From Candidatus Hydrogenedentales bacterium (GTDB taxonomy: Bacteria > Hydrogenedentota > Hydrogenedentia > Hydrogenedentales > JAEUWI01): a stretch of 64,000 bases of DNA. The position numbers were made by a program, and so were the translations under genes. Location: positions 5,402,198-5,466,197 of the forward strand of contig OW818658.1 of assembly GCA_942492815.1 (NCBI GenBank). Reading direction: 5' to 3'. The notes under the pieces are model-generated. The model was not told the origin of the DNA. It was given only the letters and a program-made list of their open reading frames with translations, and did not search any database. This document shows positions 3,065 through 31,280 of this stretch, piece by piece; within the stretch, counting starts at the first letter, position 1; each line of letters begins with the position of its first letter.

Positions 3065-5737
3065 CTACTTCGCCTTCGAATAAATCACCACCGCCGCACC
3101 CGGCTTCTCCTTCAACTCAATCGCCACTCCCTCCTCCATCAGGGCCTTCCCAGTCATGCGTATGGCGCCTTCCGCGTCCACATTCCGCACGTCGTACTCC
3201 GCATCCGCTTCGAGACCGCGCAGGGGGAAGGTTGCGCCGAAGAACTGGCTTTCGTTCCGGCGGAAGGCCTGCACAAAGCCCGTGCCCTCTTCGGGGCGAT
3301 GGTATTGCCATGCGATCCAATTCCCCTGCGAGACGCTCCAGGGGGTCAGGGGATAGTAGTCGCCGTAGTAGTTCGGACCGACCTCCAGCCACTCCTTATA
3401 GAGCTTCATGATCAGCGCGTCGTCCACCGCCACGCGGAAGTCGAAGCAGCCGATATTGGCGGGGCACATGTTGCTCCGGCGCATGTAAGGATGGTAGGAC
3501 GAGCCGCCCGTGCCTTCGCCCCAGCCCACGGTATTGGAGGGGTTGTAGCCCGTGCCGAAGATCGGCAGCCACAGGGACAGGCCGTAGGTGTGGCCCTGCT
3601 GGCCCGCGGGCTCGAAGAGGTAGTCGCTCCGCAGCAGGGGAATGGCCCGGCGCATGGTCTCCAGATCGTTGCGACGTCCGCCCGAAGCGCAGGAGTCGAT
3701 CAACATTCCCGGATGCCGCCGCAGGAGCTCGTCCCAGTAGGCGAGGTAGCCCATGACGTACTTATTCTCCGTCATGCCCTGGCGCTCTACCGTGTCGTTC
3801 TCGCGCCAGAATTTGAGCGGGTCGATGTTGTAGTCCTGGCGGTACAGGTCGATACCTTCGTCGGTGATGATCTGGTCGATGTGGTTCACGAGCCAGTTCC
3901 AGGCTTCGGAATTGCCCAGGTTCAGCAGCCCGCCCTTGTCCCCGCCGAAGATCCACTCGGGGTGCTCCGTGGCCAACCAAGTGCCCCCCGCCACGCGCTC
4001 GGGCTCAAACCACACGATGGTTTTCACGCCCTTGCTGCGCCCATGATCGCTCACCGCGCGCAGGCCGTTGGGAAAGCGGTTCGGGCTGCGATCCACTTCC
4101 CAAGTGCCGGTCCAGGGCCAGTTGTTCTCCGCCGCGCCCACATACCAGCCCGCGTCCATCCACCAGTAATCGATCTTCAGCCCCTTGGCGAGGTAGCTGT
4201 CGAGAAAATCCTTCTGATTCTGCTCGTTCGCCTTGGTCATCTCCGCGAACTGGTGGGAGCTGCACGCCGCGAAGAAGGGCAGTTTGATTCGCTCGCCGTG
4301 GGGCTTAGGAATGTTGTACTGGATCATCCAGCGACGCCAGATGTTCTGCGCGTCGATCCAGTCGTTGTTTTGCGTGAACTGCACCACCACCAGCGGCGTG
4401 CGGATCTCTTCGCCCGGCTCCAGCCGAAGGTGGGTCAGTTCCTGGCCCGCCTGGACCTGAATTCCAGAGCCGACGTCCCGCTTGAAGTCCGCCGCCCACT
4501 GGCCCGGCCAGCCGATGGTCACAATCGCGCCTTCGTCACCGGAGCGCAGGTTGAAATAGGGATAGGCGAAGTTCGTGCCCCGGCCGCCTTCTGGCACTCT
4601 GTGGAACGATTCCCCCGCGCCCAGCGGTGTCACCAGGGGCTGATAGGCCGTTGCCGAAAGATTGTCGCCGTTGTTGTGATGGAGCACAAAATCATCGCCC
4701 GCGTCGTGCTGGAAGGTCGTGTCGATGCCCTGAACCTTCTCCAGCAACGGTGTTGTCTCGGAGGACGTGTTCTTCAGGTAGACCGTCCACTCCACCGTCT
4801 TGAAATCGCGGTACTCCAGGCCCTGCCAACGGACCTCCAGGCCCGTCTCCGGATCCTTCCACGTGATCGTGTGGGCCGTGCGCTGTCCATCCAGCGCGGT
4901 GCTTTCATCCGTGCGCGCGCTCCGCGCCAGCACCGCGTCGGAAGCCACCCCGCCATATACGAAGGAGAATGGCGCGCTCACCGGACCATCACCCAGGGCC
5001 GCCTTCCACGCCGCGCGTCGGTCCGGACCGCCCAGGGTCATGTCCGCCTGCGTGCCCAGCCAGTGCAGCAGCGCCGGTGGCGCGGGCTCATATTTCTCCA
5101 CCTGCAGCGTAAACTGGCCCACGAAATCCGGCGTGCCGCTCGCGCCCGTGGCATGGGCGCCCACCAGGTCCAGATTGTCCGCCACGGCCGGCGGTGCAAA
5201 GTGAAAATCCGTCAGCGTCGCCTTCAGTCGCTTGCCCGGCTCCGTAAACACCCACAGCCCCGCCGGATTGTCCCCATGGGTCAGCGTGCCCGCCGCAGCG
5301 ATGTCGGCAATGGGCAGACCCATGGTCACCTTCGCGCCGTTCGCCTTCAACGCTGGCGCGGCAGCACCCGCTTTCGCCATCTGCGTTATTGCGGAGAGCC
5401 CCGCCTTGTCCTGCGCGCCGTCGAAAAACAGATTCAGCCCCGTGTGCTTCCACGTTTCGCCAAACTCCGCGTGAAAGGTGTACGTGTGCGTACCCGGCGT
5501 CAGGGGAATGCGAATCGTGTTGTCCCCCGCGCCGTTCAGCCACTGCGGCGCGGCGGCGGCCTCCCCCGAATACACAAAAAGGTCCCACGCGGCATCCACC
5601 GGCCCCGCGTTGTAGCGATGCCGGGGATTCACGGTACCCTGTTCGTCGGTTTCAAAGAGGGCGATGCCGGTAAGGTCCAGGGCGGATGCGGACCAAGGCG
5701 CGGCGGCCAGCATTATGAGCGATAAATACTTCATCAT
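3065..5737 (-). CDS. Alpha-galactosidase-like glycoside hydrolase (GH36/clan D) with a long N-terminal extension
   Basis: Signal peptide MMKYLSL... (start moved from 5896 to 5737). Motifs WWMDAGWY, WFEPERV, YRQDYN, IDSCASGGRRNDLE, LLRSD. Confidence 0.8.
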   Translation of the reverse strand: MMKYLSLIMLAAAPWSASALDLTGIALFETDEQGTVNPRHRYNAGPVDAAWDLFVYSGEAAAAPQWLNGAGDNTIRIPLTPGTHTYTFHAEFGETWKHTGLNLFFDGAQDKAGLSAITQMAKAGAAAPALKANGAKVTMGLPIADIAAAGTLTHGDNPAGLWVFTEPGKRLKATLTDFHFAPPAVADNLDLVGAHATGASGTPDFVGQFTLQVEKYEPAPPALLHWLGTQADMTLGGPDRRAAWKAALGDGPVSAPFSFVYGGVASDAVLARSARTDESTALDGQRTAHTITWKDPETGLEVRWQGLEYRDFKTVEWTVYLKNTSSETTPLLEKVQGIDTTFQHDAGDDFVLHHNNGDNLSATAYQPLVTPLGAGESFHRVPEGGRGTNFAYPYFNLRSGDEGAIVTIGWPGQWAADFKRDVGSGIQVQAGQELTHLRLEPGEEIRTPLVVVQFTQNNDWIDAQNIWRRWMIQYNIPKPHGERIKLPFFAACSSHQFAEMTKANEQNQKDFLDSYLAKGLKIDYWWMDAGWYVGAAENNWPWTGTWEVDRSPNRFPNGLRAVSDHGRSKGVKTIVWFEPERVAGGTWLATEHPEWIFGGDKGGLLNLGNSEAWNWLVNHIDQIITDEGIDLYRQDYNIDPLKFWRENDTVERQGMTENKYVMGYLAYWDELLRRHPGMLIDSCASGGRRNDLETMRRAIPLLRSDYLFEPAGQQGHTYGLSLWLPIFGTGYNPSNTVGWGEGTGGSSYHPYMRRSNMCPANIGCFDFRVAVDDALIMKLYKEWLEVGPNYYGDYYPLTPWSVSQGNWIAWQYHRPEEGTGFVQAFRRNESQFFGATFPLRGLEADAEYDVRNVDAEGAIRMTGKALMEEGVAIELKEKPGAAVVIYSKAK

Positions 5738-5771
5738 GGGGTAATTCCTTAATCCAGACTTGCCATTGGGC

Positions 5772-6152
5772 TTATGCACGAACCCTGAAGAACTCGATTT
5801 GAATACCTGGCTCGATGCGAATGCGCGCACCGTAAGGTATGGGCGCGTCGCCGTCATATCGACCGCCAAACAGACATCCGCCACCAATTTCGACATAGTT
5901 GCCCCGGGAATCGTTCACCCACCGCGCGGCATCGCTTTCTGCAATCCGACAGTCCACAATCGCCAGGGCACAGCCATCACGAAACAATGCAATGTCTACG
6001 TCCCCATCGAACTGGCGCACCTTCACCACGAGACGCATCTCATCCTTCATAACGGTAAAGGTGTGGCTGATGTCGTACTCTTCCACTTCTGGAACGACGC
6101 CCAGACATTGGATAAAGTCTACTGAACTCCACTTAAGCAGTGGCACCGGCAT
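5772..6152 (-). CDS. Hypothetical protein (126 aa)
   Basis: ORF with plausible globular composition. ATG 6152 is preceded by a G-rich RBS-like sequence. Confidence 0.55.
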   Translation of the reverse strand: MPVPLLKWSSVDFIQCLGVVPEVEEYDISHTFTVMKDEMRLVVKVRQFDGDVDIALFRDGCALAIVDCRIAESDAARWVNDSRGNYVEIGGGCLFGGRYDGDAPIPYGARIRIEPGIQIEFFRVRA

Positions 6153-6258
6153 TCCCCACTTTGTCGGCCGCAAATGGCACGGCCATCACCGTGATCTCAC
6201 ACAAGATTGGCACGGCATCTTCCGTGCGCTCGCTCGTTCCTCGTTCCCAGGCTCTGCC

Positions 6259-7764
6259 CTTGTCATTACCCATAAGTTTTCTGTCCTAGTGCGATTAGAT
6301 ACCCTTCAAGTAGGAGCATGAGTTGGAGCCAACCTCGCCAGATACTGAGCCAGCCGGGTGGGCCGTCGTTTTTTCTCCCGACGTAGCCGCCCATCCGGGC
6401 GATGGCGCGCATGGCGGATGCGTTGGTCCACCCGCACTTGGGACGGCCGATGGTTTTTTCGAGGATGTCCAGCGCTTCGGGCCGCAGCAGGCCGGGGCTG
6501 ACGGCCTCGTCGGGCAGATTATTGGCGAGGAGCTTGAGTTGGAGCAGATCCGCAGCGATGGGCGCATGAATGGCGAGCAGGGCTTCGATCCGCTTGGCGC
6601 TGGACAACTGGCTGTCTTCGATATGGGTGCCCGTCTTGAGAGCTTTGTGATACTCCTCGATCAGCCAGCGGCACGCATAGGCGCCAATCACGCGCCGGGT
6701 CTGGATGAAGTGCTCGCATGGCCAACTGGTCAGCAAGACCCAGTGGATAGGCTCCTTTACATCCGCCGGCGGATCGATCTCGCGCACTTCCACCACGCTA
6801 GTCGACTGGGGGGCATGGCGTCCTGGCAAGTCGCGCGGCGGCACGATCTCGGTTTTCACCGCCCGTACTTCTACCCGCGCTTTTCGTGCGGCAACATCGG
6901 GACGGGCGCGCAAATCCAGCGTGTACCGCCCCTGCACGGGAGCATGGGCCACCGTCGCGAATACACTGCCAGCCTCCGATGTGGTGCGTCGAGCCTGCGC
7001 AGCGCGGATCACCCAATCCTGGCTTATAGGCCGCGTTACATTGTTCAAGCACCTCGAAGATATCGGACTCCCGATCCGACACCAACGTCCAACGTGCCCC
7101 TTCGGGCGGTGCTCCGGCTTCTGCCATGGCCCGGCCCCAGCGCCAGGACTCACCCGTTTTGCCTTTCGTGCGCTTTTCGATCCGTTTTACGCGCTTGCGT
7201 TCAGCCCGGGTGCCCTCGGGTTCCGTACGGGCCCAAGCCTGTTGTCCAAAGACTCCCACGAGCACCACTTGCGGTTCGTGTTCGTTACCCCATTGCGTGA
7301 TGCGTGCCGCCAGATTGGTATGAACCAGGAGCCCTTGGCTGGTATCGCATGTGAGCGGCCCCATTCCCGGAATCGCTCCTCGCTGCGTAAAGGACAGCGC
7401 TGTCGTGTCCTCGATCAACAAGTATTCGCCCGGCTCTCGGCACTGTTCGCGTGTCGCGCTTACATGTGGCTTCAATATACCTTCGTGCGTCACCTTCGGA
7501 TTACCCAACAGCCGATAAGCGGCTTTCAGCGCCATTCCATCGTTAATGGCCTGTGGAAGCGTACCACGAGGATTCCTGCGAATACACGAGGCCACCTCCA
7601 CAAGACGACGGAGCAAGCGAAGGTCACCCAACGCCGCGCCCCAAAAGTGCCGATGAGCCCACGTCGATGTATCCATAACCATACTCCCAGCAATAGCTTA
7701 GCAAGAAAATACTATATATGGTATGGATATTAAATATAAACAACAATATATGGGTAATGACAAG
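6259..7764 (-). mobile_element. IS4-family (IS50/Tn5-like) insertion sequence, 1506 bp
   Basis: Perfect 16-bp TIRs CTTGTCATTACCCATA (6259-6274) / TATGGGTAATGACAAG (7749-7764). 9-bp direct repeat GGCTCTGCC at 6250-6258 and 7765-7773. Confidence 0.95.
6266..7682 (-). pseudogene. IS4-family DDE transposase, frameshifted near 7025
   Basis: ORF 6798-7682 has the Tn5-like N-terminus (ALGDLR, LLIEDTT, SDRESD). ORF 6266-7153 has DWVIRA, YACRWLIEEYHKALK (YREK) and PPGWLSIWRGW. The two join by a 1-nt shift. Confidence 0.9.
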
Positions 7765-7831
7765 GGCTCTGCCTGGGAATGCAGTCCCCGGAGCTACGCT
7801 CCGAAGTCCACCCTCCATGATGGCCGATGCA

Positions 7832-8206
7832 TCACCTCACATACAAGCACCCGTGTGCTGTGCTTGGAAACACGCTCGGCTCCCGGTGTGCTACGCTATT
7901 CGGCAACGCCGATTCGTTGCCCGCCTTGCGCAGGCCGTGGAAGATGTCCGCCATTTCCTGTGTGATGATGTCTTCGAGCTTGAGTCGGCGAAGGATGTCG
8001 CTGAAATCGTCCTCGGGGAGCAGGCGCATACCGTCGTAGGCCGCCGCGTCCTCCGCCAGGGCTTCGGCGAGCTGGCGTAACTTGATCAGGGTGGTATTTG
8101 GGTCATCCAGGACATAGCGCTCCGCCCGCGCCGCGTATTCCAGGAGCTGGGGATCGTGATCGGCGAGGAAATTGAAGTTGGGCGATTTCAGGGCAGGTGC
8201 TGTCAT
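7832..8206 (-). pseudogene. Truncated DUF4145 (HsdR N-terminal, HEPN-like) paralogue: 98 homologous codons plus a 26-aa unrelated tail
   Basis: MTAPALKSPNF...LRKAGNE is 95/98 identical to the N-terminus of CDS 41103-42323. Homology ends at 7913. Confidence 0.8.
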
Positions 8207-8317
8207 GGGTGCTCTCTTTCGGTGGAGGTAGTTATACCGCAAGAGCGATGGCGGGATGCAAGGAAGAATGATTGGCCGGGAAAGGACGTAAAGAGTAACG
8301 CCCGGAATTTCGGAATG

Positions 8318-8499
8318 AAGGATCTTGGACATTCTTGTCCGAGGCAAAAGGCGTTACGGCATGGAGGCACTTTCTCCGCGTGCAGGTCGCCTGTGAATCC
8401 TGAGTCACAACTTCGGCGACACACGATCACGGAGCATGTTCGACGGGTCCTTCCGCGTTGGCGCGCGCCTTGCCTCGGACAGGAATGTCCAAGATCCTT
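8318..8499. repeat. REP-like inverted pair, same family as 2667-2918
   Basis: 8318-8347 vs reverse complement of 8470-8499, 29/30. Core TTGCCTCrGACAGGAATGTC. Confidence 0.85.
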
Positions 8500-8557
8500 T
8501 ATGCGGCAATGTCGGGTGAACCTTCGAACTTCGCCCCGCGCCAAAAGGCTATGCTCT

Positions 8558-11500
8558 CTATTCTTTATCTTGGCCTATCGGCTGGAGTGCGATGGTGATA
8601 ACTTCGCCCAGTCGCGCGCCGTTGACCGGTTCCGATGTGGCGGTGACGTAGCCTTGGGCCGATACTCGGGCGGCGAATTCCGTCTGGCGGTCCGCCATCA
8701 GCCAGCATCGTGGCAAGATGGTGAAGTCGCCCGCGTCGGGGCCGCGGGTTATCTTCACCGTTTCGGTGCTGATCCAATTAAATTCACTGCCGACCATTCC
8801 CAGGCCGATCTCAACTTCTGGCACTGGGACCGAAAGGCCTGAGTTGGCGTCCACGACACGCCCGCGAAAGGGTTTCTTGAGAATCAAGTTGGCACGGAGC
8901 GGCTCATTGAAACTTGGTTCTACCTGGATGGACGCATCGAAATAGTCGCTATGGGCAAAGGTAAAGAGGATTCTACATTGCTGTGGCGTGTGGGGCATTT
9001 CAAAGTGCCCATCGGCACCGGTGCGAGTCTGCCGGAGCACGGCAGGAGGCCTGACAGAGTGCCAACCTCCAGCCGCATTGCCCTCAAGGTCGGCTAACCA
9101 TCCCTTGAAAGTGACGGTGACACCCTCCACGGGCGCACCCCCCGCATCGATAACCTCACCGCGCAGCACGGCGCCCTCGCTCAGGGTGATAGATATAGAC
9201 GATTTCCATGAATCCGCTAGCAGGGTGATCGCTTCCGGTGCGTGAACGTCGTTGAGCACGGTCATCGTCTGATCCTGCGTGTCGTCCACGTGGTGAATCG
9301 TGAACTTTCCGTTCTCGTCCGTGCGTGCGCTGGCAGTCTGTTCTTCCGAGCGCAGCTCGCGTATGTCACGACAAATCGTGGCCCCTGCGACTGGATTTCC
9401 CTCGCTATCCCGCACGGCACCTGATAGCGAAACGCCAGCCTTCACGACAAGCTCCGCCGTGTGATCGCGTAACTGAGATTCGGGTGGGGTTACGCGGCTT
9501 TCCAGCGAGAAATCGCTTACATATTCGTCGGTGCTCAGCGCGACCTTCAGGCGGTTCCAACCGGTTGGCATTCTAACCTCCCAGTGCCCGTCGCTCGCGG
9601 TGATGCCTCTATCGCCCATCGGCACGGTGTCTTCGTACTCACCTATCAACCCCACGCTCACGTTCGGTGCGGGTTCGCCGCTTTCGTTTACCACGCGGCC
9701 GCCCAGCGTGATCATCTGGTGTTCCGCATCCGGCGCGGCGGTGTAGTCCACGTCTATAGACGCGAGCCCGGGCAGCGCCGCGAGGAACTCTTTGTAACCT
9801 TCGGTGATCCGGGTTTTCTTCAAGGACAGGACAGCGAGTTTTTCATAAGGGTAAATATAGCGCAAGTCCTCGTTGGCAATTGGGGCGGCTTCCAGATCGA
9901 GCGCCAGAAGCCCGGTGAGAGCAGCGAGATCATCAAGCTGTTCGCCCGAGATTCCCGTAAAGGAGAGATCGAGGGATTGGAGTCGGTCCAGCTCGGCCAC
10001 GCACTGGAGGGGGCTTCGATTCAGACTCGGGACCGTAATATTGAGCGCGCCGAGTTGCGGGAGGGCCGTCGCGGCACGATTTGAAAGTTCCACGCCCCTC
10101 AGGCTGAGATGGCGCAATTGCTTCAGGACGACAAGGGGCGTGAGATCGCGGGTTTGGAGTACTGCGTCCTCCAGGTCTAGCCAGCGCAGGTTCGCCAGGG
10201 GCCTCAAGTGTTTCAGCTCCACATCGGGCACCCTGCAACGCCGGAGGCTGAGGGCTTCCAGGTCGGTCCACCCGGCGATGTGGCGCAGCGTGCCGCCGGA
10301 GACCCCTATGCCTCGAAGATTGAGGTACTGGATACCATCCGCGGGCAGGCTCGAAAAGGCTGGGGTTATTCCTAAAACGGCCACGTCCAGGCGGACCATT
10401 TTTCCCGCCGGAATCTCCACGTTGCCCTTTGCCTCGCCGATCAGTTCCCAGCCTTCTTCCGAGTGCATCGACGTTTTGGCCTCGGAAGTATAGGTATAGT
10501 CCATCGGATCATGGAGGTAGAGGGTGCCGAGGGAACTATCCGCCGGAAAGGAGAGCGTGCGCGCGGAAAGCACTTCCGCGCCCTTGCCTTTGTCACCTTC
10601 TTCTTGCTTCACGACTTCGCGGACCAAGGCCTTTCGGATCTTAAAGGTGTGGTTATCGTAGGTCAGCAGGTAGAACGATTCATCCTCCTCGACGGCGTCC
10701 GCAGGCTGGCTGTGCCCGCTGCGCAGGTGGACCATGTACGGCCGCTCTTTCACGGTCGGGCCCGTTGATTTCTCCAGTGAAAACCGGCGTGATCGCGTCG
10801 TGGGCAATTCCTGACTTTCGTCTTCCGGTGTCGTGAGTGTCACCGTCTCACCATCGATGACGACCGTTTTCTCCCGGACAGAGGTTTCTATGCCATAGGC
10901 TTGGGCAATCACGGCACGCGCTATCTCCGCAGCTCCCGTGCCGCCGTGCATACCGTGCTCCAGGAGTACGCTAACGGAAATCTTCGGCTCGCGATCCATC
11001 ACGCCCGCGACAAACCAGGCGTGGTCCCGCATCTCGTAGGGAATCTCCTCATCCGACGCGTATTTCGACCACTTTGTGGCGCTCATGATCTGCGCGCTTC
11101 CGGTTTTTCCAAGCACCTGAACGCCGTCGACTCCCGCGCGCCAGCCGGTGCCGGCGGGGTAGTCGGGCGGGGCCTTTTCCACGGTCTTGCGGAGTGCCGC
11201 GTGAAGGACTTCCAGTGTGGCGTCGCTGAGCATTCGTTCGCTGCGATCAGGAGGCAACTCCGCGTTCATACGGGGTGCGACCCGGAAGCCGCCGTTCACG
11301 ATGGCCGCCATCATCACGGCGTTCTGCAGGGGCGTGATGGCTGCGCTGCCCTGGCCGATGCTGAGATTGACGGTGTCGCCGGGATACCATTTCTGCTCGC
11401 TGACCGTTTTGTCGGCGTAGTTCTGCTTTTTCCAGTCCTGGCTGGGGATGAGGCCGCTGATTTCGCGGGGTAGATCGATGCCCGTGGAAATTCCCAGGCC

Positions 11501-13120
11501 AAACTTGCCGGCCCACTTGTTGATCTTGTCCACGCCCAGGGAGAGGCCCACGTTGTAGAAAAACACGTCGCAGGAATAGACCAGCGCGTCCGTCACATTA
11601 ACCCCGTCATGCCCGTCGCGCTTCCAGCAGCCCCACGCCCGGCCTCCCCCGTTGATTCGATAGGAACCGCCGCAGTAGTGCGTGGTGTCCGGCGTGATGA
11701 CGCCCTCCTCCAGCGCGGCGGCGGCGAGGAGGATCTTGAAGGTCGATCCCGGCGGATACTGTTCCTGGTAGGCCCGCGTGTAGGCGGGCCGGATCGGAGA
11801 TGCGTTGCCCGAGGCCTTCTGACCTTCGATCACCTCTTTCATCGTGCCAAAGGGCGCGCTGGCCATGGCGAGCACCGCGCCGGTATCGGCGTTCAGCACG
11901 ACGATGGCACCCGCCTGGCCTTCGAGCAGGGACTCACATTTTGCCTGCAATGCAGGAGCCTGCGGGCTTGGCAGTGATTGCTCGGTTTCCTCAGCCGCGG
12001 TTTCTTCCTTTGCTTCTTCACGATCGGCAATCGCACCACCCACGGCAAACACGGTGCCGGCGAACAGGATGAGGGATAGCACCGCCGCGATGCCGAGGCG
12101 CGCCGGGGTATTCAGGGAATTGCCGAGCAATGCGGCGATGCGCGTGTTGATCTGCGTGCGCGTGGCGAAGAGGCCGGTGGCCATGGTGCGCTGACGCTGT
12201 TGGCGGGCCTGGACGAGGATGGCGTAGAGCTGTTCCGCGTAGGCGGTGACGTCGTCGTCGGTGCGGACGACGGCGCGGTCACAGGCGAGCTCCACGGCGG
12301 CCTCCCAGCGTCGGCTGGCCCACCAGGTGACGGGGTGGAAGAAGAAGAGGATCTGGGCGAGGCGTCGCAGGGCATTGGCGATGGGATCGCGGTGTTTTAG
12401 GTGGGTCAGTTCGTGGCGCAGTGCCCAGGCGAGTGCGGTTTCATTCTCGGGCGCGTTGAGCCATTGTGGGATGACGATGGTGGAGCGGAACCAGCCCACC
12501 ACGGCGGGCGATTCGAGCTCCGCAGTCACGCGCAGGGGCGGAACGGTGCGCAACTGGAGCGAGGCCGCGCCTTGGGCGAGCGCCGTGGTGGCGTGGGTCG
12601 ACGGAGAGGTTGTGCGCGCGATAAAACGGCGCAGGCGGATGCGATCGAGCAGCGTGGAGCCAAGGAGGAGCACGACGCCCGCGAGCCAGAGGGACGCGAG
12701 GATGCGCGGTGTGAGTACGTTCCAGTTGATCGGTGTTCGCACGGGGATGGCGGTTGCGGCCGGCTTGGCGGGGGTGGCCGGAAGCGGTGCAGGCGGGAGT
12801 TCAAGGGCAGACATCTGCGGCATGGCCTCGCTGCGAACCGGCGGCGCTTCGGGCAATGGGGCTGCCGTGATGATCGGTTCGGGCGGCGCGAGGCGCAACA
12901 CGGGAACCACCGCGCCGAAAGTGAGCGTGACAATGGGTTTGGCCAATACGATGAGCCAGAGCATGGCGCAGGCGCGTGGCGAACGGATGCGAAAGACCGT
13001 GATGGCGAGCGCGACCGCGACGGCGAGTACGGCCAGCTCCGCGCTGGCGAAGAAGAGGCGCTCGAGGAGGGGGTGCGCGTCCATGGCGGCGAGAAAGGTG
13101 TTGAGCGTATCGGTGTTCAT
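8558..13120 (-). CDS. BlaR1-like M56 peptidase fused to a PBP2-type transpeptidase, leucine-rich repeats and carboxypeptidase-regulatory-like Ig repeats (1520 aa)
   Basis: ATG 13120 overlaps the blaI stop (ATGA). TM helices, HELTH at 12401-12415 with ELACD. STFK 11735-11746, SCD 11567-11575, KTG 11099-11107. LxxLxL LRRs about 9760-10330. Confidence 0.85.
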   Translation of the reverse strand: MNTDTLNTFLAAMDAHPLLERLFFASAELAVLAVAVALAITVFRIRSPRACAMLWLIVLAKPIVTLTFGAVVPVLRLAPPEPIITAAPLPEAPPVRSEAMPQMSALELPPAPLPATPAKPAATAIPVRTPINWNVLTPRILASLWLAGVVLLLGSTLLDRIRLRRFIARTTSPSTHATTALAQGAASLQLRTVPPLRVTAELESPAVVGWFRSTIVIPQWLNAPENETALAWALRHELTHLKHRDPIANALRRLAQILFFFHPVTWWASRRWEAAVELACDRAVVRTDDDVTAYAEQLYAILVQARQQRQRTMATGLFATRTQINTRIAALLGNSLNTPARLGIAAVLSLILFAGTVFAVGGAIADREEAKEETAAEETEQSLPSPQAPALQAKCESLLEGQAGAIVVLNADTGAVLAMASAPFGTMKEVIEGQKASGNASPIRPAYTRAYQEQYPPGSTFKILLAAAALEEGVITPDTTHYCGGSYRINGGGRAWGCWKRDGHDGVNVTDALVYSCDVFFYNVGLSLGVDKINKWAGKFGLGISTGIDLPREISGLIPSQDWKKQNYADKTVSEQKWYPGDTVNLSIGQGSAAITPLQNAVMMAAIVNGGFRVAPRMNAELPPDRSERMLSDATLEVLHAALRKTVEKAPPDYPAGTGWRAGVDGVQVLGKTGSAQIMSATKWSKYASDEEIPYEMRDHAWFVAGVMDREPKISVSVLLEHGMHGGTGAAEIARAVIAQAYGIETSVREKTVVIDGETVTLTTPEDESQELPTTRSRRFSLEKSTGPTVKERPYMVHLRSGHSQPADAVEEDESFYLLTYDNHTFKIRKALVREVVKQEEGDKGKGAEVLSARTLSFPADSSLGTLYLHDPMDYTYTSEAKTSMHSEEGWELIGEAKGNVEIPAGKMVRLDVAVLGITPAFSSLPADGIQYLNLRGIGVSGGTLRHIAGWTDLEALSLRRCRVPDVELKHLRPLANLRWLDLEDAVLQTRDLTPLVVLKQLRHLSLRGVELSNRAATALPQLGALNITVPSLNRSPLQCVAELDRLQSLDLSFTGISGEQLDDLAALTGLLALDLEAAPIANEDLRYIYPYEKLAVLSLKKTRITEGYKEFLAALPGLASIDVDYTAAPDAEHQMITLGGRVVNESGEPAPNVSVGLIGEYEDTVPMGDRGITASDGHWEVRMPTGWNRLKVALSTDEYVSDFSLESRVTPPESQLRDHTAELVVKAGVSLSGAVRDSEGNPVAGATICRDIRELRSEEQTASARTDENGKFTIHHVDDTQDQTMTVLNDVHAPEAITLLADSWKSSISITLSEGAVLRGEVIDAGGAPVEGVTVTFKGWLADLEGNAAGGWHSVRPPAVLRQTRTGADGHFEMPHTPQQCRILFTFAHSDYFDASIQVEPSFNEPLRANLILKKPFRGRVVDANSGLSVPVPEVEIGLGMVGSEFNWISTETVKITRGPDAGDFTILPRCWLMADRQTEFAARVSAQGYVTATSEPVNGARLGEVITIALQPIGQDKE

Positions 13121-13533
13121 GATTGGTTGCCCCTTTTTTTGCGTTCTTTGATCAGGGCCTGAATGGCCTCCAGGTCGGCCTCGTCGATGTCGTGATCGTT
13201 GATCAGACAGGCGATGGCGCGCCTCGGACTGCCATCGAGGAGGCGCCGGGTAATCTGCCGCAGCGTGCGCGCTGCAAAGTCGTTGCGCGAGACCGTGGCC
13301 CGGAGGCGGAAGCCCCGCTCCGTGGTGGCCACGGGCTCCAGGTAACCCTTCTCGCGAAGATTCGCCAAGACTGTTCGGATGGTGGTCTTGGCGAGCGGTT
13401 CGTTGGCATCGTTGTAGGCGTCGATGACCTCGGCTGAGCTGCATTCGCCCAAGCGCCACACGGTGGCCATCACGTCCTCTTCCAGGCGGGTGAGGTCATT
13501 GGGACGCTTTTCGTCGTTCTTTTTACGGACCAT
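13117..13533 (-). CDS. BlaI/MecI/CopY family transcriptional repressor
   Basis: LTRLEEDVMATVW...SSAEV...TTIRTVLANLREKGYL winged helix. Directly upstream of the M56 gene. Confidence 0.9.
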   Translation of the reverse strand: MVRKKNDEKRPNDLTRLEEDVMATVWRLGECSSAEVIDAYNDANEPLAKTTIRTVLANLREKGYLEPVATTERGFRLRATVSRNDFAARTLRQITRRLLDGSPRRAIACLINDHDIDEADLEAIQALIKERKKRGNQS

Positions 13534-13557: not shown

Positions 13558-13613
13558 ACTATAAAATTGAGGCTGTAACTATAAAAATAGTCCATCGTGG
13601 TCCGATTTGTCAA
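13558..13613 (-). promoter_or_regulatory. Putative blaI promoter (TTGACA-N18-TATTTT) overlapped by the palindromic operator ACTAT-AAAA-ATAGT plus a degenerate second box
   Basis: TTGACA at 13613-13608 (minus strand). Perfect 14-bp dyad 13578-13591. Half-match ACTATAAAAT 13558-13567. Confidence 0.65.
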
Positions 13614-13643: not shown

Positions 13644-13678
13644 AAAAAAAAGCCGCGGATGTCGCCATCCGCGGCTTT
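13644..13678 (-). terminator. Rho-independent terminator of the FG-GAP gene
   Basis: 12-bp stem AAAGCCGCGGAT/ATCCGCGGCTTT followed by a T-run on the minus strand. Confidence 0.8.
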
Positions 13679-13691
13679 GCTTTCGTGCCGC

Positions 13692-16600
13692 CTATCGATG
13701 AAGGAGGATTGATATATTGCTTGCGCCACTGTTGCCGGCAGCGATATCGGGCAAGCCATCCTCGTTGAAGTCGCCGGTGACGATGCCACTCGTAAAGGGA
13801 TCGGCCAGATTGTAGCTGCTCATACCCGAGAAGAAGCCCGTGCCATCGCCGACGAGGATGCCGACCGCCTCGATCCCGGGTTCTTCAGTGAAGAGGATGT
13901 CCGGTGTGCTGTCCAGATTCACGTCGGCAATGAACAAGTGGCTGTAGCTGGCGTCGTAGGGGCGATTCGGGATCTCGAAGGGGACGGAACTGTTGAAGCT
14001 GCCATCGCCCCGACCAAGGCTTACATAGATGGTGCTATCGTTAAAGTTGGTTCCGATGACATCGGGATCGCCGTCGCCATTCACGTCGCCCACGGCGATG
14101 GCGTACTGCCCGTTCCCGGCCGAGGAGGGTGCCTGGAATGATCCATCTCCGTTGCCAAGGTAGACCCGCGCCCCCCCCCCGGCGTCGGCGGTAACCAGAT
14201 CGGGATTGTTGTCCCCGTTGATGTTGGCGACTCTGACGACTTGCGGGGAGCTGCCGCCCGAGACGTCAAAGGAATTCTGAAAAGTGCCGTCGCCTATCCC
14301 GAGGAGGATCGCGACCCCGTTGCTCGGCGAAGGCACGGCGGCCACGTCCGTGGCTCCATCTCGGTCAAAGTCGCCGAGGGCAACGCTCGCGACGCGGTCC
14401 CCGGAGGTGATGAACGTAGGTGCTTCAAAAGCGCCTTCGCCGCTTCCCAGCAGTATCCCGATCCGGCCGGGCGATGCGTGGGCGGAGATCGCATCGGGCA
14501 ACGTGTCGTTGTTAACGCGGCCGACGACCAGGTCATTGATTCCGGTGGCGAGGGGCGAGGCGATGGGGGACGCGAAGGTGGCATCCCCATTGCCTGGAAG
14601 CACCAGCACCTGTCCGTCGGAGGTACGAACGGTGACCAGGTCCAGGTGATCGTCTCCATCCATGTGGGTCGCATTGAGCGAGCGGTTGCCGAAATCGCCC
14701 GTCTGGACGATGAGCTGGGTGTCGAATTCGCCACCGCCCAGACCGCGCAGCACGACGATTTCGCCATAGCCCGAACCCGTAATGGGGAGCAGATCGGGGA
14801 TCGCGTCGCCGTCCGCGTCCAGATTGGTGATGCACGGGGAGAATCGCGACGAGCCGACAAGCCGACTGTCCGCGAAACCGCCGTCGCCGTCGTTGAAGAA
14901 GACGTTGATGGCGCCCGAGTTGATCACCGAATTCGCCGTGGCCAGATCGATGCTGCCATTCCCGTCGAGATCGCCCGCCGTGAGGCAGCGGGCGCTTCCG
15001 GTGATGGGATAGGTAACCTGCGCACCGAAAGTTCCATCCGCGGCTCCGAGCAACACACCCAGCGGCGCTTCCTGTCCCGTGAAGGCAACGTCCAGCGAAT
15101 CATCGCCGTTGAAATCGGCCAACACGAGATGGTCGGGGGCAAAGACCGTATCGTAGCTGATCGGATCCTGGAAGGTTGCGTCTCCGTTGCCCAGCCGTAT
15201 CTCGAACTTTGAAAGCCCGCGATTCAGCACGTACAGATCGAGATTGTCATCGCTATTGGCGCGTGCCAGGCCGAGATCGAGCACATTGTTTCCGGGGATT
15301 TGCAGGGTGGTGGGCGCTTGCAGGGTTCCGTCGCCGTTTCCGAGGAAGAAGTTCATGAACCCGGAGTTGCTGCTGCTGGCGACCACGTCGGGGACGTCGT
15401 CGTTGTTGATGTCGCCGATGGCTAAATCGCCGGTGCTTTCTGCGGTCGCGGCGAAGCCGACGGGTTCGCCGAAGGTACCATCCCCGTTGCCCAGCGCGAT
15501 GAAGACGCTGTCATCGATGAATCCAGCGAACACGGCATCAAGGTTCGTGTCGTCGTTCATGTCCTTCAGCGTCACGTCCGCCGGGAGTGCGCCGATGGCA
15601 ATCGAGTTCGGCGAGTTGAAGGTGCCGTCTCCGCGGTTCAGGATAGATACCAGCGCGGCGGTTGTGACGTTGTTCAGGGAGTCGTTGGTCACCACGACGA
15701 TATCCGGCAGGTCGTCGCCGTTAATGTCGCCCGTGGCGATATCCTGGGCCGTTCCTCCGTAGGGGAATCGTGCGCCGGGATAGAGCAGGGCGATGGTTTC
15801 CTGAATCGTGATCGCACCCGCATTGGTGACGCCATCGGGCACGATGGTCAGTCCCGTGACCTGTCCGGAGAGGGTCGTCTCTTCGGTCGTGAGGCGCGCC
15901 GTAACATCGAGGAGGGGCAGACCGCCGGACGGCACATTGCCTTGGAGCACGAAGGAGAAAGCGCCGCTGGCATTGGTGAGGCCCTGGCCGCCGAGGCTGG
16001 TGAAGACGGCCGCGCCTTCGACGGGCGATTCGTCTTCGCGTTGCACGGTGCCGCTTACCGTCGTGGAGAAGAGCACCAACCGGGGTGCCAGGATGCCCGC
16101 GTCGGTGATTCCGTCCGCCACGACGGGAATGAGGCCGGAGTCGAGCTCGTCTTCACCGACCGTTGTGACGAGCGTGACGAAGTTGGTCGTAGAGGGCAGC
16201 GTGAGGACCAGAGTGAAGAAGCCATTGGCGTCGGTGGTGGCGGTGCCGCCAAAGGCCGTTGTGGTTACGACGACCCCGGCCACGGGGTTGCCTTCCGCGT
16301 CCCGCACGAAGCCCTCAATGGTCGTGGAAATCGTATCTGAGGCGATGGTGACGCGTTTTGCCGAGGTGACGCCCTGATTGGACGCGGTCACGACGGCGAC
16401 GCCGTTTTGGAGTGCCGTGAGGACGCCTGCTTCGTCCACCGTGATGAAATCGGTACTGCTCACGCGGTAGGTCGTTCCCGCAGCCACGGGGGTGACGTCA
16501 TTCTCCGTGTCGTCGAACTGGATGGCCGTCGCGGCGAGTTGGGTGGTGGCTTCGGGCTGCAATACCGAGGCGGCGGCGTCCAGGTCAAGCTTTTTCGGGA

Positions 16601-19600
16601 AGAGCGGGGGCGTGTCGGACAGCGTGAAGCTGTTTACGATGGCGACGCCATTGTTCAGCACGCGGAAACTCCCGCTGGTGGCATATTTCATCTGCCCGTC
16701 GATGTTGGCCACGCCCACCACGCTGATCACGTCGTCGGCCACGAAATCCGGCCTCGATCCGGGGCCGCCGGTTCCAAATTGATCGGGCGCGGTAATATTG
16801 GGAATGACGAAGAGGCCATCGTCGTCGACGCGGAAGGCCTGGCCATTGGCGAAGAGGGTATAGCGGCTGTCGAGGAGTACGGGCGGATCATCGCCCTGCT
16901 TGGGTGGTGTTGGCAGATCGAGGGCTACAACGACTTCCTGGCGGACACGGTCCTGGAATGCCGTACTCTCGATGATCGATTTGTGATCGGTTCCCGGCAC
17001 TTCAATCACGCTGTCGCCCTCGACCCGGAAGCCGCGCAGGCATTCGATGTCGCCGAAGTTGTCCACGCCGATGTTGGAACAGTTCGCCCGTTCAACATCG
17101 GTCAGCCCGTCGGGGGTGACAAAATTGATGACACCACCCACGCCGGGCAGCACCTGATCGCGCTGGTAGAAGGGGACACCGGGGAAATCCTGCAACACGA
17201 GATCGCGGCTGATACCGTCGGCAATGATGGCGACATCGGGGTTGAGATCCCCCGAGAGGCGCACGGTGTCGCCGCCCAGGCTGTGGCCCACGAGGATGAG
17301 GAAGGGGCGGGGGCATTCGGCGGAGCCGGGCACATTTTCCCGGGCTTCTTCTGTGAGGCGATCGAGCCACTGGTTTACGGCGAAGAGCTGTGACGCGGCC
17401 GAATTGGCGGCGGGGAAGACTTTTGCCGTAACGCGATAGGGCTCAATTTCCCGCAGGCTGTCCGCCAGTGGGCCGAAAGCGGCGGAGAAGTCACCCGCGC
17501 TCCATTCTTCGGGGCAGAGCCCGGGGAAGGCCTGTGGGCATCTCGGTCCTCCTTCGAGGAAGGCCACGGCGACCTCAAAACAGTTGCGCACGACACCGGT
17601 GACGGCGTAGGGCGGGCAATTGCCGCCCCAGCCGGCCACATAGAGGCCGGAGCCGGGATCGGAAACGATCTCGCTCGCGTCGTCGCTCACCCGGCCCGAA
17701 GCTGCGATCTCAAAGGCGTTGGTGCCATGCTCGAAGCTGAGGAAGTAGGCCGCGGCCCCGGCGGGCAGGCCGGACATGTTGGGGTAGGTAATTTCCACGG
17801 GCGGGTCGAAGCGGGCCTGGGAGGGTTGCAGCGTCCAGGCGAACTGCGTCGCCACGCCGCCGGGCAGGGCCATGGGCACGTCGTCGTAGTGCACCTGGGT
17901 GAGGGACAGGGTGGCGGGATTCGACGGGGAAGGAATGGTGCCGTCGGAGTTCGTCATGGAACCTGCCTTGACCACCATTTTCAGCCCTTCAACACCCACG
18001 ACGCGCAGCTCCACGTCCTGGGTGCCGTCGTACTGCACCTCGTTCGCGGGGTCGAGCTGTGGTAGGAATACCGGTCGCGGCAGCGTGTTGGCGGCGTTCG
18101 CGATAATGGTGGTCTCGAAGGGCAGCCGGGGGAAGCCACCGCCGGTGATGGGTTCTCCGCCGAGGGTTGTGGCGGTGCGCCCGTCGAAGCGACCTCGGGC
18201 GGGGCCATCGGGAATGCCGGTAAACAGAAAGCGACCTTCCTCATCGGTGATGGCCGGTTCCAGGAAGACGCCATTGACCGAGATGTCCACCTCCACACCG
18301 CCGACGGGCGAGCTCGCGTTGTCGAGCACAACCCCGGAGAAGGTCGTGGGCTGCCCCTCGGTGCGCTGAACCCCTTCAATCGTGAAGGTGGCGGGCAGGC
18401 CCGTGTTGCCTTCGAAATTCGCTTCGATGATGTTCTTTCCGGGTGTCTCCCCCGCAGTGAAGTAGGTCCGCGCATTCCCGGTGATATCCGTATCGATGGT
18501 GATCTCCGGGGTCCCGTCCGGTTCGAATCCGCCATCGCCGGACACGACCCGGAAGGTCACGGGGACGCCGCCCACGGAATTGCCGCCGTCACTCACCCAG
18601 GCAATCAGACGCTCCGGTGCCGGGGCACCCGTTTCCGCGCGCTGATCATTGCCCATCATGATGTTGATCTGGGCAGGCGGCCCGGCCAGGGCCGAAGCGC
18701 AGAAGAAGGTGGTCCCCGCGATATCCTCGCTGGTAACGCTGATCCGGTTATTGCCCTGGCCCGCGTCGGAGCCCAGCGTCCAGAAAACCGTAGCCAATCC
18801 CTCGGAATCCGTCCTTGTCTGCAGGGTCATCTCACCGGTGTCCGCACCCGACGCCGTGGCGAGGCGCCCGTCGCTTCGGGTGACGTGGAAGTTCACGGTC
18901 TTCCCGGCGAAGGGCGAGCCGTCTTCGTTGGCCACCTTCACGACGACCGGGTTCGCGAGTTCGGCGCGAATCTCCCCGCTCTGGTCATTACCGGAGACGA
19001 TGGTCATGCGCGGGCCCGTCGCGGCCACGCGGGTGACGGTCACCGTGGCGGTCGTGCTGTTGCCGGCCGCATCGACGCCCGTGGCGGTGATGACATTGGC
19101 ACCGAGGGCGAGGGGCACCGCCTGGCGTTCGAAGGAGCCATTGGTGCCGATGCCGGGGAATACCTCGGCCACGCCGCCGTTGACCTGGACTTCCAGGCCC
19201 AGGAAGCCGCTGAGCACATCGCTGATGCGCCCGGCGACCTGAACGGATTCATTGGTAAGCTCGGCGCCGTCTTCCGGGAAGTCGATGGCCACCATGGGCG
19301 CCTGTGCGTCCTGAGTGATCTCCACCGGGGCCGGGGCGCTGCGGAGGCCGAGGGCATTCTCCGCGATGACCGAGAGGCGATTGCGCTGGCCGGCCAGGAG
19401 CGTTACATCCACGGAGAAGGCGCCGGATTCATCCGCGACGGTCGTAAAAGTCATGTTCGTGGTTACGATGACATGAATGGTCGTGTTAGGGTCCGCCGAG
19501 CCGGAAATGGTTGCGGCGGTTCCGGTGAGGGGCGTCAGGGGGAATACAAGGTTGGCCGGCGTGCTGGGCGGCGCATCGGGGTCCCGGACTTCGATCAGGT

Positions 19601-19934: not shown

Positions 19935-20083
19935 CCTGTGGATCTCCCGTGATGTTGAAGCACCATAATACAATATGAGGCGAGTTCTGGGAAGCACGTT
20001 CTTCTGAAGGCCGAAGTCTGCGCGTGGGCGCTCGCTTCCGGTGGGTGTGTGTTGCCCGTCCTATCGTGCGCGCCGGAAAACAG

Positions 20084-31100: not shown

Positions 31101-31280
31101 CTGTCGGAGGCATTCGACGAACAACGCAGTCATTTCGCGGGCGATCCCGAAAGCGCGAAGACCTATCTCGCCATCGGCGAAAAGCCCATGCCCGAAGGGG
31201 CCGATCCCGTCCAACTCGCGGCGGCCACGGCCCTGGCCCAGGCGATCATGAACCACGAGGAGTTTCAGGTAAAACAATGA
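28146..31280 (+). CDS. Planctomycete cytochrome c / DUF1549 / LamG / DUF1553 protein
   Basis: CFACH and CARCH heme-type motifs. Motifs LIRRVAFDLTGLPP, WLDVARYADT, NRLWQ..FG.GL, TPLQAL.LLND. Confidence 0.9.
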   Translation: MHRRRSTWVSGLVAAIMALSAPAEEPLQYNRDIRPILSKHCFACHGPDSAARKGELRLDRAADALAAKAILPGDVAGSEAIARIFASDADDLMPPPKAKLELSDAQRETLKRWVAEGAQYEKHWAFISPTQHPVPAVADAPTPEDAFIRARLVAEGLSPAPEASKETLIRRVAFDLTGLPPTLPEIDAFLADSSPVAYETMVDHFLNGPNYAEHMTNQWLDVARYADTFGYQADRDSTVWPWRDWVIRAFDQNMPYDEFIRAQIAGDLLPNATQDQRLATAFNRLHRQTNEGGSVLEEFRVNYVADRAETFATAFLGLTVGCARCHDHKFDPVTQENYFQLFAYFNNIDESGMYSHFTSPIPSPSMFVYGEGEKERHEALRAAISGNEGEVDHVRTEATGRFEAWRTDPNRTAPSSVPVVALPLDAQAEGKTRNIAAEGSEATLSRAPESVPGPEGGALQFNGDNGLDLLSAAAAFDRHQPFSFSLWLRTPDLAARYVIFHKSMAAEDAANRGYEFLLLEGKPTFSLCHFWPGNAIQVQAPAIPANTWTHCTITYDGSSRADGVSIYIDGAPAPLTIVRDGLKKSILYESEADPAKPPLQLAMRFRDAGFQGGRIDSFKVFNRRLTELEALTLAGKTNLAAEVDRLAALSQPDERLVAYYAETSDEPLRAQLAALETARKEEADFVNGVREIMTMEEMAEVRPAYRLERGEYNHRAEEVLPGVPDEILPMDPALPRNRLGLAQWLTDPRNPLTARVAVNRLWQDVFGQGLLKTQEDFGTRSVPPTYPELLDNLALDFVESGWDVKALLKKIVMTAAYRQDSTASPALLERDPDNALLARGPSHRMSAEQIRDNALASAGLLVLKQGGPSVKPYQPEGLWKDGPTSSYKPDTGEGLYRRSLYTFIKRTMPPPSLLTFNATGREYCIVRRESTMTPLQALVLLNDPQYIEAARVLATEALAADGEGWITTVFRRLTSRAPDGEELRILSEAFDEQRSHFAGDPESAKTYLAIGEKPMPEGADPVQLAAATALAQAIMNHEEFQVKQ

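Follow-up and report, generated by a model that had tools for sequence, protein, structure and literature searches.

What does a BlaR-type membrane protease sense when its sensor domain is not of the expected kind? The standard examples of beta-lactam receptors are BlaR1 and MecR1, which belong to repressor-protease switches that induce penicillin resistance in staphylococci, and their sensor is assumed to be a relative of the class D beta-lactamases. The question is raised by a blaR-like open reading frame (ORF) in a stretch of 64,000 nucleotides, hereafter the window, from contig OW818658.1 (positions 5,402,198 to 5,466,197) of a Candidatus Hydrogenedentales bacterium. The ORF lies at window positions 8558..13120 on the reverse strand (-), the strand also of the blaI-blaR features, the promoter and terminator before them, the DUF4145 remnant, the giant gene upstream and the two DUF4838 genes described below. 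It comprises 1520 codons and a stop, and its product appears in the public collection as P0001 (1520 amino acids; proteins are cited by P numbers and loci by L numbers). The longest ORF spans 8558..13459, with the ATG at 13120 being the start shared by homologues and by the public gene call. Databases label proteins combining M56 with PF00905 as class-D-type sensors; here the same chassis carries the transpeptidase (TPase) of a cell-elongation penicillin-binding protein (PBP), which is of the MrdA/PBP2 type and not a class-D-like BlaR1 sensor.

A transpeptidase of MrdA type on a BlaR-type protease

The protein consists of an M56 module, the TPase, a linker of ~105 amino acids, ~8 leucine-rich repeats (LRRs) and CarboxypepD_reg immunoglobulin (Ig)-like repeats. 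A first-pass annotation, made from the letters alone, had described an M56 HExxH protease, the motifs STFK, SCD and KTG, an unassigned linker and ~8 LRRs, all of which were recovered by Pfam and by translating the coordinates of the motifs, the LRR matches being sub-threshold. It had also taken the TPase to be PBP2/MrdA-type rather than class-D-like, a call on which TIGR03423, sequence and fold matches in the PDB, phmmer and a neighbour-joining (NJ) tree agree.

The TPase domain occupies residues 390-745 (10886..11953). Pfam places Transpeptidase PF00905 at residues 404-738 (E 3.9e-59), but as this family also covers the BlaR1 sensor and the OXA enzymes the match alone leaves the type of TPase undecided. 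The NCBIfam model TIGR03423 (pbp2_mrdA) aligns over positions 236-591 of 593 with 336.7 bits against a cut-off of 455 (E 2.7e-100), and the MrdA-derived stretch begins at about residue 390, at 'ALQAKCESLL', corresponding to the end of the MrdA pedestal. In a phmmer search of PDB sequences PBP2/MrdA chains came top (E 3e-54 to 2e-46) with other class B PBPs next, and Foldseek with the AlphaFold2 (AF2) model ranked structures as the sequence search did, PBP2/MrdA being best; no BlaR1, MecR1 or OXA chain was found among the 60 PDB sequence matches listed or in the top 50 fold matches. The domain is 27-33% identical to solved PBP2 structures. Using references for Staphylococcus aureus BlaR1 and OXA-10 taken from annotated plasmids, the domain had no phmmer match to BlaR1 and scored 15 bits with OXA-10, compared with 426 bits for a Hydrogenedentota MrdA. 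The closest database relatives are PBP_dimer+Transpeptidase proteins of ~650 amino acids (54-63% identical), and the named ones among them are 'penicillin-binding protein 2' of Candidatus Hydrogenedentota.

We compared 122 TPase domains in an NJ tree built from Kimura distances (50 bootstraps; deep nodes unsupported). Five fusion proteins group together with 100% bootstrap support. The clade enclosing them (96% support) contains 40 MrdA sequences, those with names being from Hydrogenedentota, and BlaR1 and OXA-10 are saturated outgroups. A phylogeny against MrdA and BlaR1 had been proposed in the first-pass annotation as a check, and in it the TPase does not cluster with canonical BlaR1 sensors.

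The catalytic motifs are STFK (the SxxK motif, residues 459-462, 11735..11746) with the acylatable serine S459, SCD (the SxD motif typical of PBP2, residues 516-518, 11567..11575) and KTG (11099..11107) followed by SAQ, giving KTGSAQ at residues 672-677. SxxK, SxD and KTG are invariant in an alignment of 43 sequences (the fusions and 38 MrdA proteins). Eleven positions that are ≥90% conserved elsewhere are altered in the fusion clade, none of them in a catalytic motif; four of the 11 (at 425-446) fall together with a 6-residue deletion within residues 423-446. Within the window's family the ratio dN/dS is 0.18-0.25 for the TPase and 0.15-0.21 for the M56 module, and the TPase is under purifying selection. 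AF2 models are confident for both the M56 core and the TPase.

The M56 signal-transducer module (residues 1-365, 12026..13120) comprises the transmembrane (TM) helices TM1 and TM2, the Pro/Ala-rich outer loop EL1 (residues 78-135, 12716..12889), TM3, a cytoplasmic gluzincin and TM4 (residues 341-363, 12032..12100). Pfam places Peptidase_M56 PF05569 at residues 29-331 (E 1.6e-34), while the NCBIfam model NF000326 (blaR1_generic) aligns to the M56 half alone (model positions 104-300, 98 bits against a cut-off of 400). Four hydrophobic helices are indicated by hydropathy, and HExxH falls between the last two, TM3 and TM4; everything beyond residue 365 is thus extracytoplasmic, as in BlaR1. The zinc-binding and catalytic motif HELTH (residues 236-240, 12401..12415; H236, E237, H240) aligns with H201-E-x-x-H205 of S. 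aureus BlaR1, and ELACD (the ExxxD motif, residues 277-281, 12278..12292), which provides the third zinc ligand E277 and D281, aligns with E242xxxD246. All eight residues named as critical in S. aureus BlaR1 (H201, E202, H205, D210, E242, D246, Y261 and R294; PMC9834060) are identical here, at H236, E237, H240, D245, E277, D281, Y294 and R327, respectively. A BLASTP alignment of the whole protein with S. aureus BlaR1 (E 9e-10) covers the M56 halves and ends just past the SxxK motif. The M56 half has no phmmer match to PDB sequences at E ≤ 0.01; its assignment is based on Pfam, NCBIfam and the direct BLASTP comparison, and most of residues 130-300 are modelled by AF2 with a predicted local distance difference test score (pLDDT) of 80-96.

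Certain segments of the module were compared with the processing sites of BlaR1. The autocleavage loop of BlaR1, S283|F284, aligns with G316|L317, where residues 311-318 form a low-confidence loop in the AF2 model. Between TM4 and the TPase lies an acidic tether (residues 366-389, 11954..12025; low pLDDT at 361-381), and A-I-A|D after TM4 could be a possible signal-peptidase site, as proposed for BlaR1 (PMC9834060). EL1 is 33% identical between the TPase-type protein and a thioredoxin-type protein, described below, against 88-90% for the flanking TM1-TM2 and cytoplasmic M56 parts, and it is the fastest-evolving segment among TPase-type proteins too (66-78% against 86-97%). We make no claim that EL1 co-varies with the type of ectodomain, its excess divergence being roughly proportional to its general fast evolution.

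The same M56-TPase junction is present at 84-91% nucleotide identity in six further loci (L001, L002, L079, L080, L081 and L085), the sources being JGI metagenomes 3300046028 and 3300009870, Logan assemblies SRR13608731, SRR22388190 and ERR15459718, and a Lake Mendota Hydrogenedentales metagenome-assembled genome (MAG). The fusion is carried by seven independent assemblies. Reading frames are unbroken across these assemblies, which differ in sample and assembler. That the gene is an assembly chimera, a concern of the first-pass annotation, or a pseudogene is a prospect we regard as close to nil given a junction shared by independent assemblies, uninterrupted frames and dN/dS values well below 1.

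Intact catalytic motifs, and the annotation of one independent fusion protein (P0064) as PBP2 in NCBI, could also be taken to mean that the protein is a working alternative PBP2, an enzyme and not a sensor, which uses the M56 module as a mere membrane anchor. The MrdA TM anchor and pedestal contact RodA and MreC. Here, however, the PBP_dimer pedestal PF03717 has no Pfam match, positions 1-235 of TIGR03423 are unmatched and the native MrdA TM anchor is absent, so that the parts for RodA/MreC pairing are missing. Moreover no FtsW/RodA gene adjoins the sensor gene in the window, L001, L079 or L080. The M56 protease has kept its entire active site, and in each of the three independent fusion lineages translation of the gene is coupled to that of a BlaI repressor. 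Together these points render this explanation highly improbable.

Repressor, candidate operator and exchangeable ectodomains at one locus

Immediately upstream of the blaR-like gene, and in the order blaI to blaR on one strand, we identified a blaI-like gene (13117..13533) for a winged-helix repressor of 138 amino acids of the BlaI/MecI/CopY family (Pfam Penicillinase_R PF03965, E 4e-24). Its stop overlaps the blaR-like start by 4 nucleotides (ATGA). The product matches S. aureus BlaI with E 8e-7 (BLASTP) and is matched by the NCBIfam CopY/MecI/BlaI models, although under their cut-offs. In the alignment, C110|L111 of this protein falls at the cleavage site of BlaI, N101|F102, a correspondence that is suggestive only.

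A terminator-like hairpin (13649..13678; 13-bp stem with 8 GC pairs and a T-run), whose stem is kept in L001, L080 and L081, ends the upstream gene, and the blaI-blaR pair thus forms a separate transcription unit. The pair is preceded by a sigma-70-like promoter (13584..13613; TTGACA-18-TATTTT, 10/12 matches) whose TTGACA is unchanged across four aligned upstream regions. Over the -10 hexamer, ~45 nucleotides upstream of the blaI ATG, lies the palindrome ACTAT-N4-ATAGT (13578..13591, no strand assigned), and the candidate operator sequence for the BlaI-like protein reads ACTATTTTTATAGT. It is the single exact copy in the 64-kb window, where 0.2 sites with ≤1 mismatch are expected by chance; the only second copy is a 1-mismatch site inside the blaR-like gene (10487..10500). 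Among 88 loci the palindrome occurs once each in L001, L003, L004, L005, L006, L080, L081 and L085 and in 0 of the remaining 80. These are the eight related loci with sequence upstream of blaI, the positions are compatible with a site shortly before the blaI homologue, and the M56 proteins of two of them are merely 41% identical to the window's. From this distribution the palindrome is a well-supported candidate BlaI operator, and its place at the blaI promoter implies autoregulation. With no exact palindrome elsewhere in the 64-kb window, other operator targets were not found there.

Comparison of related contigs with the window (blastn) revealed a shared frame of the giant FG-GAP gene, blaI, the M56 gene, a DUF4145 gene and GFO/IDH/MocA genes, in which the ectodomain of the M56 protein differs from locus to locus. 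The TPase with linker makes up the ectodomain of 860-amino-acid proteins in L001, L080, L081 and L002. TPase, linker, LRRs and Ig repeats are combined in the window and L085 (1520 and 1515 amino acids), while L079 (P0003, 1452 amino acids) has TPase, LRRs and Ig repeats but no linker. In L084 (1484 amino acids) the TPase is absent and LRRs and Ig repeats are followed by a thioredoxin/redoxin domain. At the nucleotide level L084 and the window are 90% identical across blaI and 82% across M56; their homology ends at window position 12024, the end of TM4, and restarts at ~8295 in the intergenic region. This replacement of an ectodomain at an orthologous locus bears out the modular assembly suggested by the first-pass annotation far better than base composition does. 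The thioredoxin type also stands at the syntenic position in more distant relatives (L003 and L004, 71-76% nucleotide identity), and its presence in near and distant relatives indicates that the TPase type is probably derived. The thioredoxin-type genes lie at 353..4807 in L084 and from 8001 (the M56 gene) in L003 and L004; their C-terminal domain is TlpA-like thioredoxin/redoxin, an arrangement suggesting that here a switch of BlaI/BlaR type receives a redox-type input from the periplasm.

Beyond the TPase lies an unassigned linker (residues 746-850, 10571..10885), which is beta-rich in the model, lacking in L079/P0003 and present in the short forms; it has no Pfam or NCBIfam match, and in an AF2 model of residues 364-935 the TPase alone is confident, with 10-residue block means of 32-70 in the linker. 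It is followed by a pre-LRR segment and ~8 LRRs (residues 851-1130, 9731..10570). LRR_8, LRR_4 and LRR_14 match residues 954-1100 under the Pfam curated cut-offs, and by eye 7-8 LRRs of ~24 residues lie between 931 and 1125. The C-terminus consists of four CarboxypepD_reg-like Ig/beta-sandwich repeats (residues 1131-1520, 8561..9730). The count of ~3 carboxypeptidase-regulatory-like repeats in the first-pass annotation agrees with the three stretches of CarboxypepD_reg PF13620 found by Pfam (E 2.6e-18) but not with a recurring start motif, which gives four, near 1136, 1231, 1317 and 1417.

The head and tail of the protein appear to have different histories. The M56 module of P0006 is 76% identical to that of the window overall and 88% in the cytoplasmic part (74-77% in the cytoplasmic part for P0007 and P0008), whereas the LRR/Ig tail of the window is collinear with those of P0006, P0007 and P0008 but only 36-40% identical, these three thioredoxin-type proteins being 53-54% identical to one another over nearly full length. 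This leaves two explanations: the tail came in by recombination, or its evolution became much faster once the TPase had arrived. Base composition, which lends mild support to modular assembly, agrees with a host origin for the TPase and a looser fit for the tail: GC at third codon positions is 0.83 in M56, 0.79 in the TPase, 0.71 in the linker and LRRs and 0.67 in the Ig repeats, neighbouring genes ranging from 0.78 to 0.84. The drop in GC that the first-pass annotation had invoked is counted correctly (0.75 and 0.483 in 60-nt lines), but with a mean of 0.614 and a standard deviation (sd) of 0.072 for such lines in the window these are spot values at only ~±2 sd, weak evidence for modular assembly alone; the gene ranges from 0.55 to 0.71 in 300-nt windows.

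If relatives at the same locus do with M56, LRR, Ig and thioredoxin modules and no TPase, the TPase might be a scaffold or vestige, inserted incidentally, with the LRR/Ig tail doing the sensing as in the thioredoxin-type alleles. M56 proteins of Hydrogenedentota and Planctomycetota indeed commonly carry LRR and Ig modules. Against this, the short 860-amino-acid alleles, found in four assemblies, keep M56, TPase and linker and have no LRR/Ig modules, which marks the TPase as the conserved ectodomain. The tail moreover evolves faster than the TPase (78% identity among the long forms against ~90%), while the TPase retains all its catalytic residues under purifying selection equal to that on M56. 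We consider a vestigial TPase unlikely, and the LRR/Ig tail is probably an accessory module for protein or envelope binding.

How common is the combination? In an exhaustive HMMER scan of 1.84 billion 50%-identity representatives, of which the best 150 were considered, M56 and TPase were both spanned by one cluster and two singletons, so that the architecture search advised by the first-pass annotation does not show M56 with an MrdA-type TPase to be common. One singleton, P0056 (MCC6696669.1; L086 5001..10064, 1687 amino acids, Hydrogenedentota), has M56, a long spacer, STN and a far C-terminal TPase whose second motif is NCD, not SCD. The other, P0064 (MBN1905310.1; L087 5001..7433, 810 amino acids), comes from a 'Deltaproteobacteria' MAG, is annotated 'penicillin-binding protein 2' and retains a short pedestal remnant; a protein with another ectodomain shares 83% identity with its M56 half, and a local MrdA shares 74% with its TPase half. 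We treat P0064 with caution, since the two assembly sources that contain it may go back to the same raw data, and rejected it as a populous family. Both singletons are preceded by a blaI-like gene. In the NJ tree their TPase domains group with different MrdA sequences, that of P0056 with P0057 (74% bootstrap) and that of P0064 with P0146 (100%), so that these were separate recruitments. By these comparisons the M56/BlaI chassis has been fitted with an MrdA-type TPase at least 3 times, from locally related MrdA genes and always beside blaI.

A survey of non-canonical class B PBPs contains 'TPase-Peptidase_M56' as one class, equated with BlaR1 (PMC12516126), and in the papers found, proteins with M56 and PF00905 are uniformly treated as BlaR1-like (PMC12516126, PMC13081940). 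We found no paper in the open-access literature that sets an MrdA-derived M56 sensor apart or mentions one in Hydrogenedentota. We regard the MrdA-type M56 sensor as a rare variant of a narrow clade that recurs convergently. A further class B PBP TPase joined to a signalling enzyme was noted in P0047 (1002 amino acids), which combines a Ser/Thr kinase (PF00069/PF07714), a PBPA-type dimerisation domain (PF21922) and a PF00905 TPase.

What the proposed switch may read

The blaI-blaR pair is most likely a BlaI/BlaR-type proteolytic switch. We propose that in it acylation of S459 by a beta-lactam activates the M56 protease and so removes the repressor, a reading by analogy with BlaR1 to which we assign a probability of roughly 0.5. 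The acyl-enzymes that beta-lactams form with the transpeptidases of class B PBPs are long-lived, and a tethered MrdA TPase would for that reason make a natural covalent receptor. Signalling would begin with a beta-lactam acylating S459 to give such a long-lived acyl-enzyme. TM4 and the outer loop would relay the change to the M56 gluzincin in the cytoplasm (H236-E-x-x-H240, E277), which would then cleave the BlaI-like repressor. On leaving ACTAT-N4-ATAGT at the -10 the repressor would derepress the operon, along with any operator-bearing genes elsewhere in the genome.

Several observations weigh against beta-lactam sensing. Neither a beta-lactamase nor a resistant PBP gene accompanies the operon, and a scan of 19 further window ORFs (reaching 40.9 kb) showed none either; the first-pass annotation had already noted an operon free of beta-lactamase, and this holds with the terminator upstream of blaI and a DUF4145 remnant downstream. 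An AF2 model of residues 1-760 gives no sign that EL1 docks in the TPase groove as it does in BlaR1, EL1 itself being modelled with low confidence (pLDDT <50 for most of residues 71-126; predicted template modelling score 0.53). The thioredoxin-type ectodomain found at the same locus in relatives indicates that the locus is not dedicated to beta-lactam sensing. Finally, a TP domain is absent from ~94% of M56 proteins, and the characterised non-canonical ones are unresponsive to beta-lactams (PMC13081940; bioRxiv 10.64898/2026.08.03.742534).

As the chief alternative, the same proteolytic switch might have a TPase that reads the cell's own wall, binding stem peptides that end in D-Ala-D-Ala or undergoing transient acylation by them (uncross-linked glycan strands, lipid II or released muropeptides) and so acting as a wall-integrity sensor. 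The TPase is a barely modified MrdA with its donor-site motifs intact, its substitutions and 6-residue deletion clustering at 423-446, off the catalytic motifs, and the lack of a linked resistance gene also speaks for this possibility, as do non-canonical BlaIR systems that govern envelope genes, such as CenIR in Clostridioides difficile (PMC13081940). Acyl-enzymes with natural donors are short-lived, however, and no peptidoglycan-related gene adjoins the blaR-like gene. Class B PBPs without a pedestal and without SEDS (shape, elongation, division and sporulation) or MreC partners are also poorly active, so that a read-out of the cell's own wall is conceivable but, in our estimation, rather doubtful.

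Taken jointly, these readings would make the M56/BlaI switches of Hydrogenedentota a plug-and-play chassis in which the ectodomain is swapped as a cassette (PBP2 TPase, LRR/Ig or thioredoxin) and for which the elongasome TPase was recruited at least 3 times, the PBP2 version being an unrecognised diderm wall-status or beta-lactam pathway convergent with staphylococcal BlaR1 and having PBP2-like ligands (amidinopenicillins, carbapenems or pentapeptide donors). We offer this combined view as speculative, with the odds clearly against it as a whole. If beta-lactam sensing is true, antibiotic sensing will have arisen convergently in environmental, non-clinical phyla, the specificity of the receptor should mirror that of the drug target and the protein might serve as a biosensor scaffold. 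If D-Ala-D-Ala sensing is true, regulated proteolysis would give a direct read-out of peptidoglycan cross-linking. The clade is narrow and its organisms are essentially uncultured; its allelic series at one locus is a clean natural experiment on input-domain swapping by M56 sensors.

Surroundings of the locus and comparison with known systems

Downstream of the blaR-like gene the DUF4145 gene is interrupted by an insertion sequence (IS) element after codon 100. The remnant (7907..8206; Pfam DUF4145) holds these first 100 codons and is 97% identical by tblastn to residues 1-100 of the 406-amino-acid homologue in L001, homologues measuring 406-434 amino acids. The IS element (6244..7779, ~1.5 kb) has 31-nt terminal inverted repeats that are 90% complementary, and its IS4/Tn5-like transposase lies in two overlapping ORFs, 6798..7682 (Tnp_DNA_bind) and 6266..7153 (Dimer_Tnp_Tn5), and is probably frameshifted. 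Between the blaR-like stop and the DUF4145 start we noted a 47-nt inverted repeat with arms at 8301..8347 and 8470..8516, 85% complementary and 122 nt apart. Homology with related loci picks up again only at ~8263-8295, past this repeat (8301..8516), which may be specific to the window genome and could be either MITE (miniature inverted-repeat transposable element)-like or a large hairpin. In L079 an extra gene of 1044 amino acids (4642..7776) stands between the sensor gene and DUF4145 and encodes an extracytoplasmic function (ECF) sigma factor (Sigma70_r2, r4_2) fused to CarboxypepD_reg/Big_1 repeats.

The gene upstream of blaI (13692..19997) encodes a secreted protein of 2101 amino acids that contains 9 or more FG-GAP/VCBS repeats besides PKD, Big_6, glucodextranase-B-like and CarboxypepD_reg domains, and keeps its place beside the blaI-M56 pair in L001 and L080. 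Two paralogous genes with DUF4838 and GH67-N-like domains lie on both sides of the region (328..2574 and 20140..22632). Other ORFs of the neighbourhood include a GH36 melibiase-like protein, a sulfatase, PSCyt1/PSCyt2/PSD1, DUF1501 and a polysaccharide deacetylase, as well as glycoside hydrolases. This glycan-degrading gene repertoire, which resembles that of the PVC (Planctomycetota-Verrucomicrobiota-Chlamydiota) group, is consistent with Hydrogenedentota. The DUF1501 gene (31277..32741) looks split, with one ORF (31277..32125) covering profile positions 1-133 of 390 and an overlapping ORF (31932..32741) in another frame, and may be a frameshift or a pseudogene.

With the BlaR1/MecR1 and BlaI/MecI systems of S. 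aureus and Bacillus licheniformis the locus shares the two-gene pairing of a winged-helix repressor with an M56 membrane gluzincin, four TM helices with the cytoplasmic HExxH...ExxxD between TM3 and TM4 (PMC9834060), the equivalents of D210, Y261 and R294, and, after TM4, an extracytoplasmic domain of penicilloyl-serine-transferase fold with SxxK and KTG. What it lacks are two defining features of BlaR1/MecR1, a class-D-like sensor and a linked resistance gene. The sensor is PBP2-like, has SxD and measures ~355 amino acids rather than ~250, a further 775 amino acids (linker, LRR and Ig) extend beyond it, there is no divergent blaZ or mecA but a blaI to blaR order on one strand, and the host, a member of Hydrogenedentota, is presumed to be diderm. 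From MrdA/PBP2 as modelled by TIGR03423 the protein has the TPase fold with SxxK, SxD and KTG(S/T)AQ; it differs in having only the C-terminal half, with neither N-terminal TM anchor nor pedestal and a score below the equivalog cut-off, in the 6-residue deletion and 11 clade-specific substitutions, and in the fusion to a protease and linkage to a repressor.

The protein fits the pool of M56 'BlaR-like' proteins with variable ectodomains in having M56, a BlaI-like neighbour and a C-terminal extracytoplasmic module. InterPro holds 254 M56 architectures, ~96% of the proteins lying within 5 genes of a BlaI homologue, and the TP type accounts for ~6% of M56 proteins (PMC13081940). Non-canonical M56 sensors (CenR of C. 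difficile, PvmS of Pseudomonas aeruginosa, Rv1845c of Mycobacterium tuberculosis, and the M56-TonB_C and M56-CarbopepD_reg types) likewise have swapped C-terminal modules next to a BlaI-like gene. They lack a penicillin-binding domain, however, whereas the protein described here has once more acquired such a domain, taken from another branch of the superfamily. The M56-LRR-Ig-thioredoxin proteins of Hydrogenedentota (P0006, P0007 and P0008; L084, L003 and L004) share the chromosomal locus blaI/M56/DUF4145, but P0006, P0007 and P0008 have no TPase or linker and carry a C-terminal redoxin/thioredoxin domain. A parallel of another kind is offered by the PASTA Ser/Thr kinases (PknB/Stk1), in which an extracellular module derived from PBPs passes its input to a signalling enzyme in the cytoplasm; there a non-catalytic PASTA repeat is coupled to a kinase output, whereas here a catalytic TPase is coupled to a protease output.

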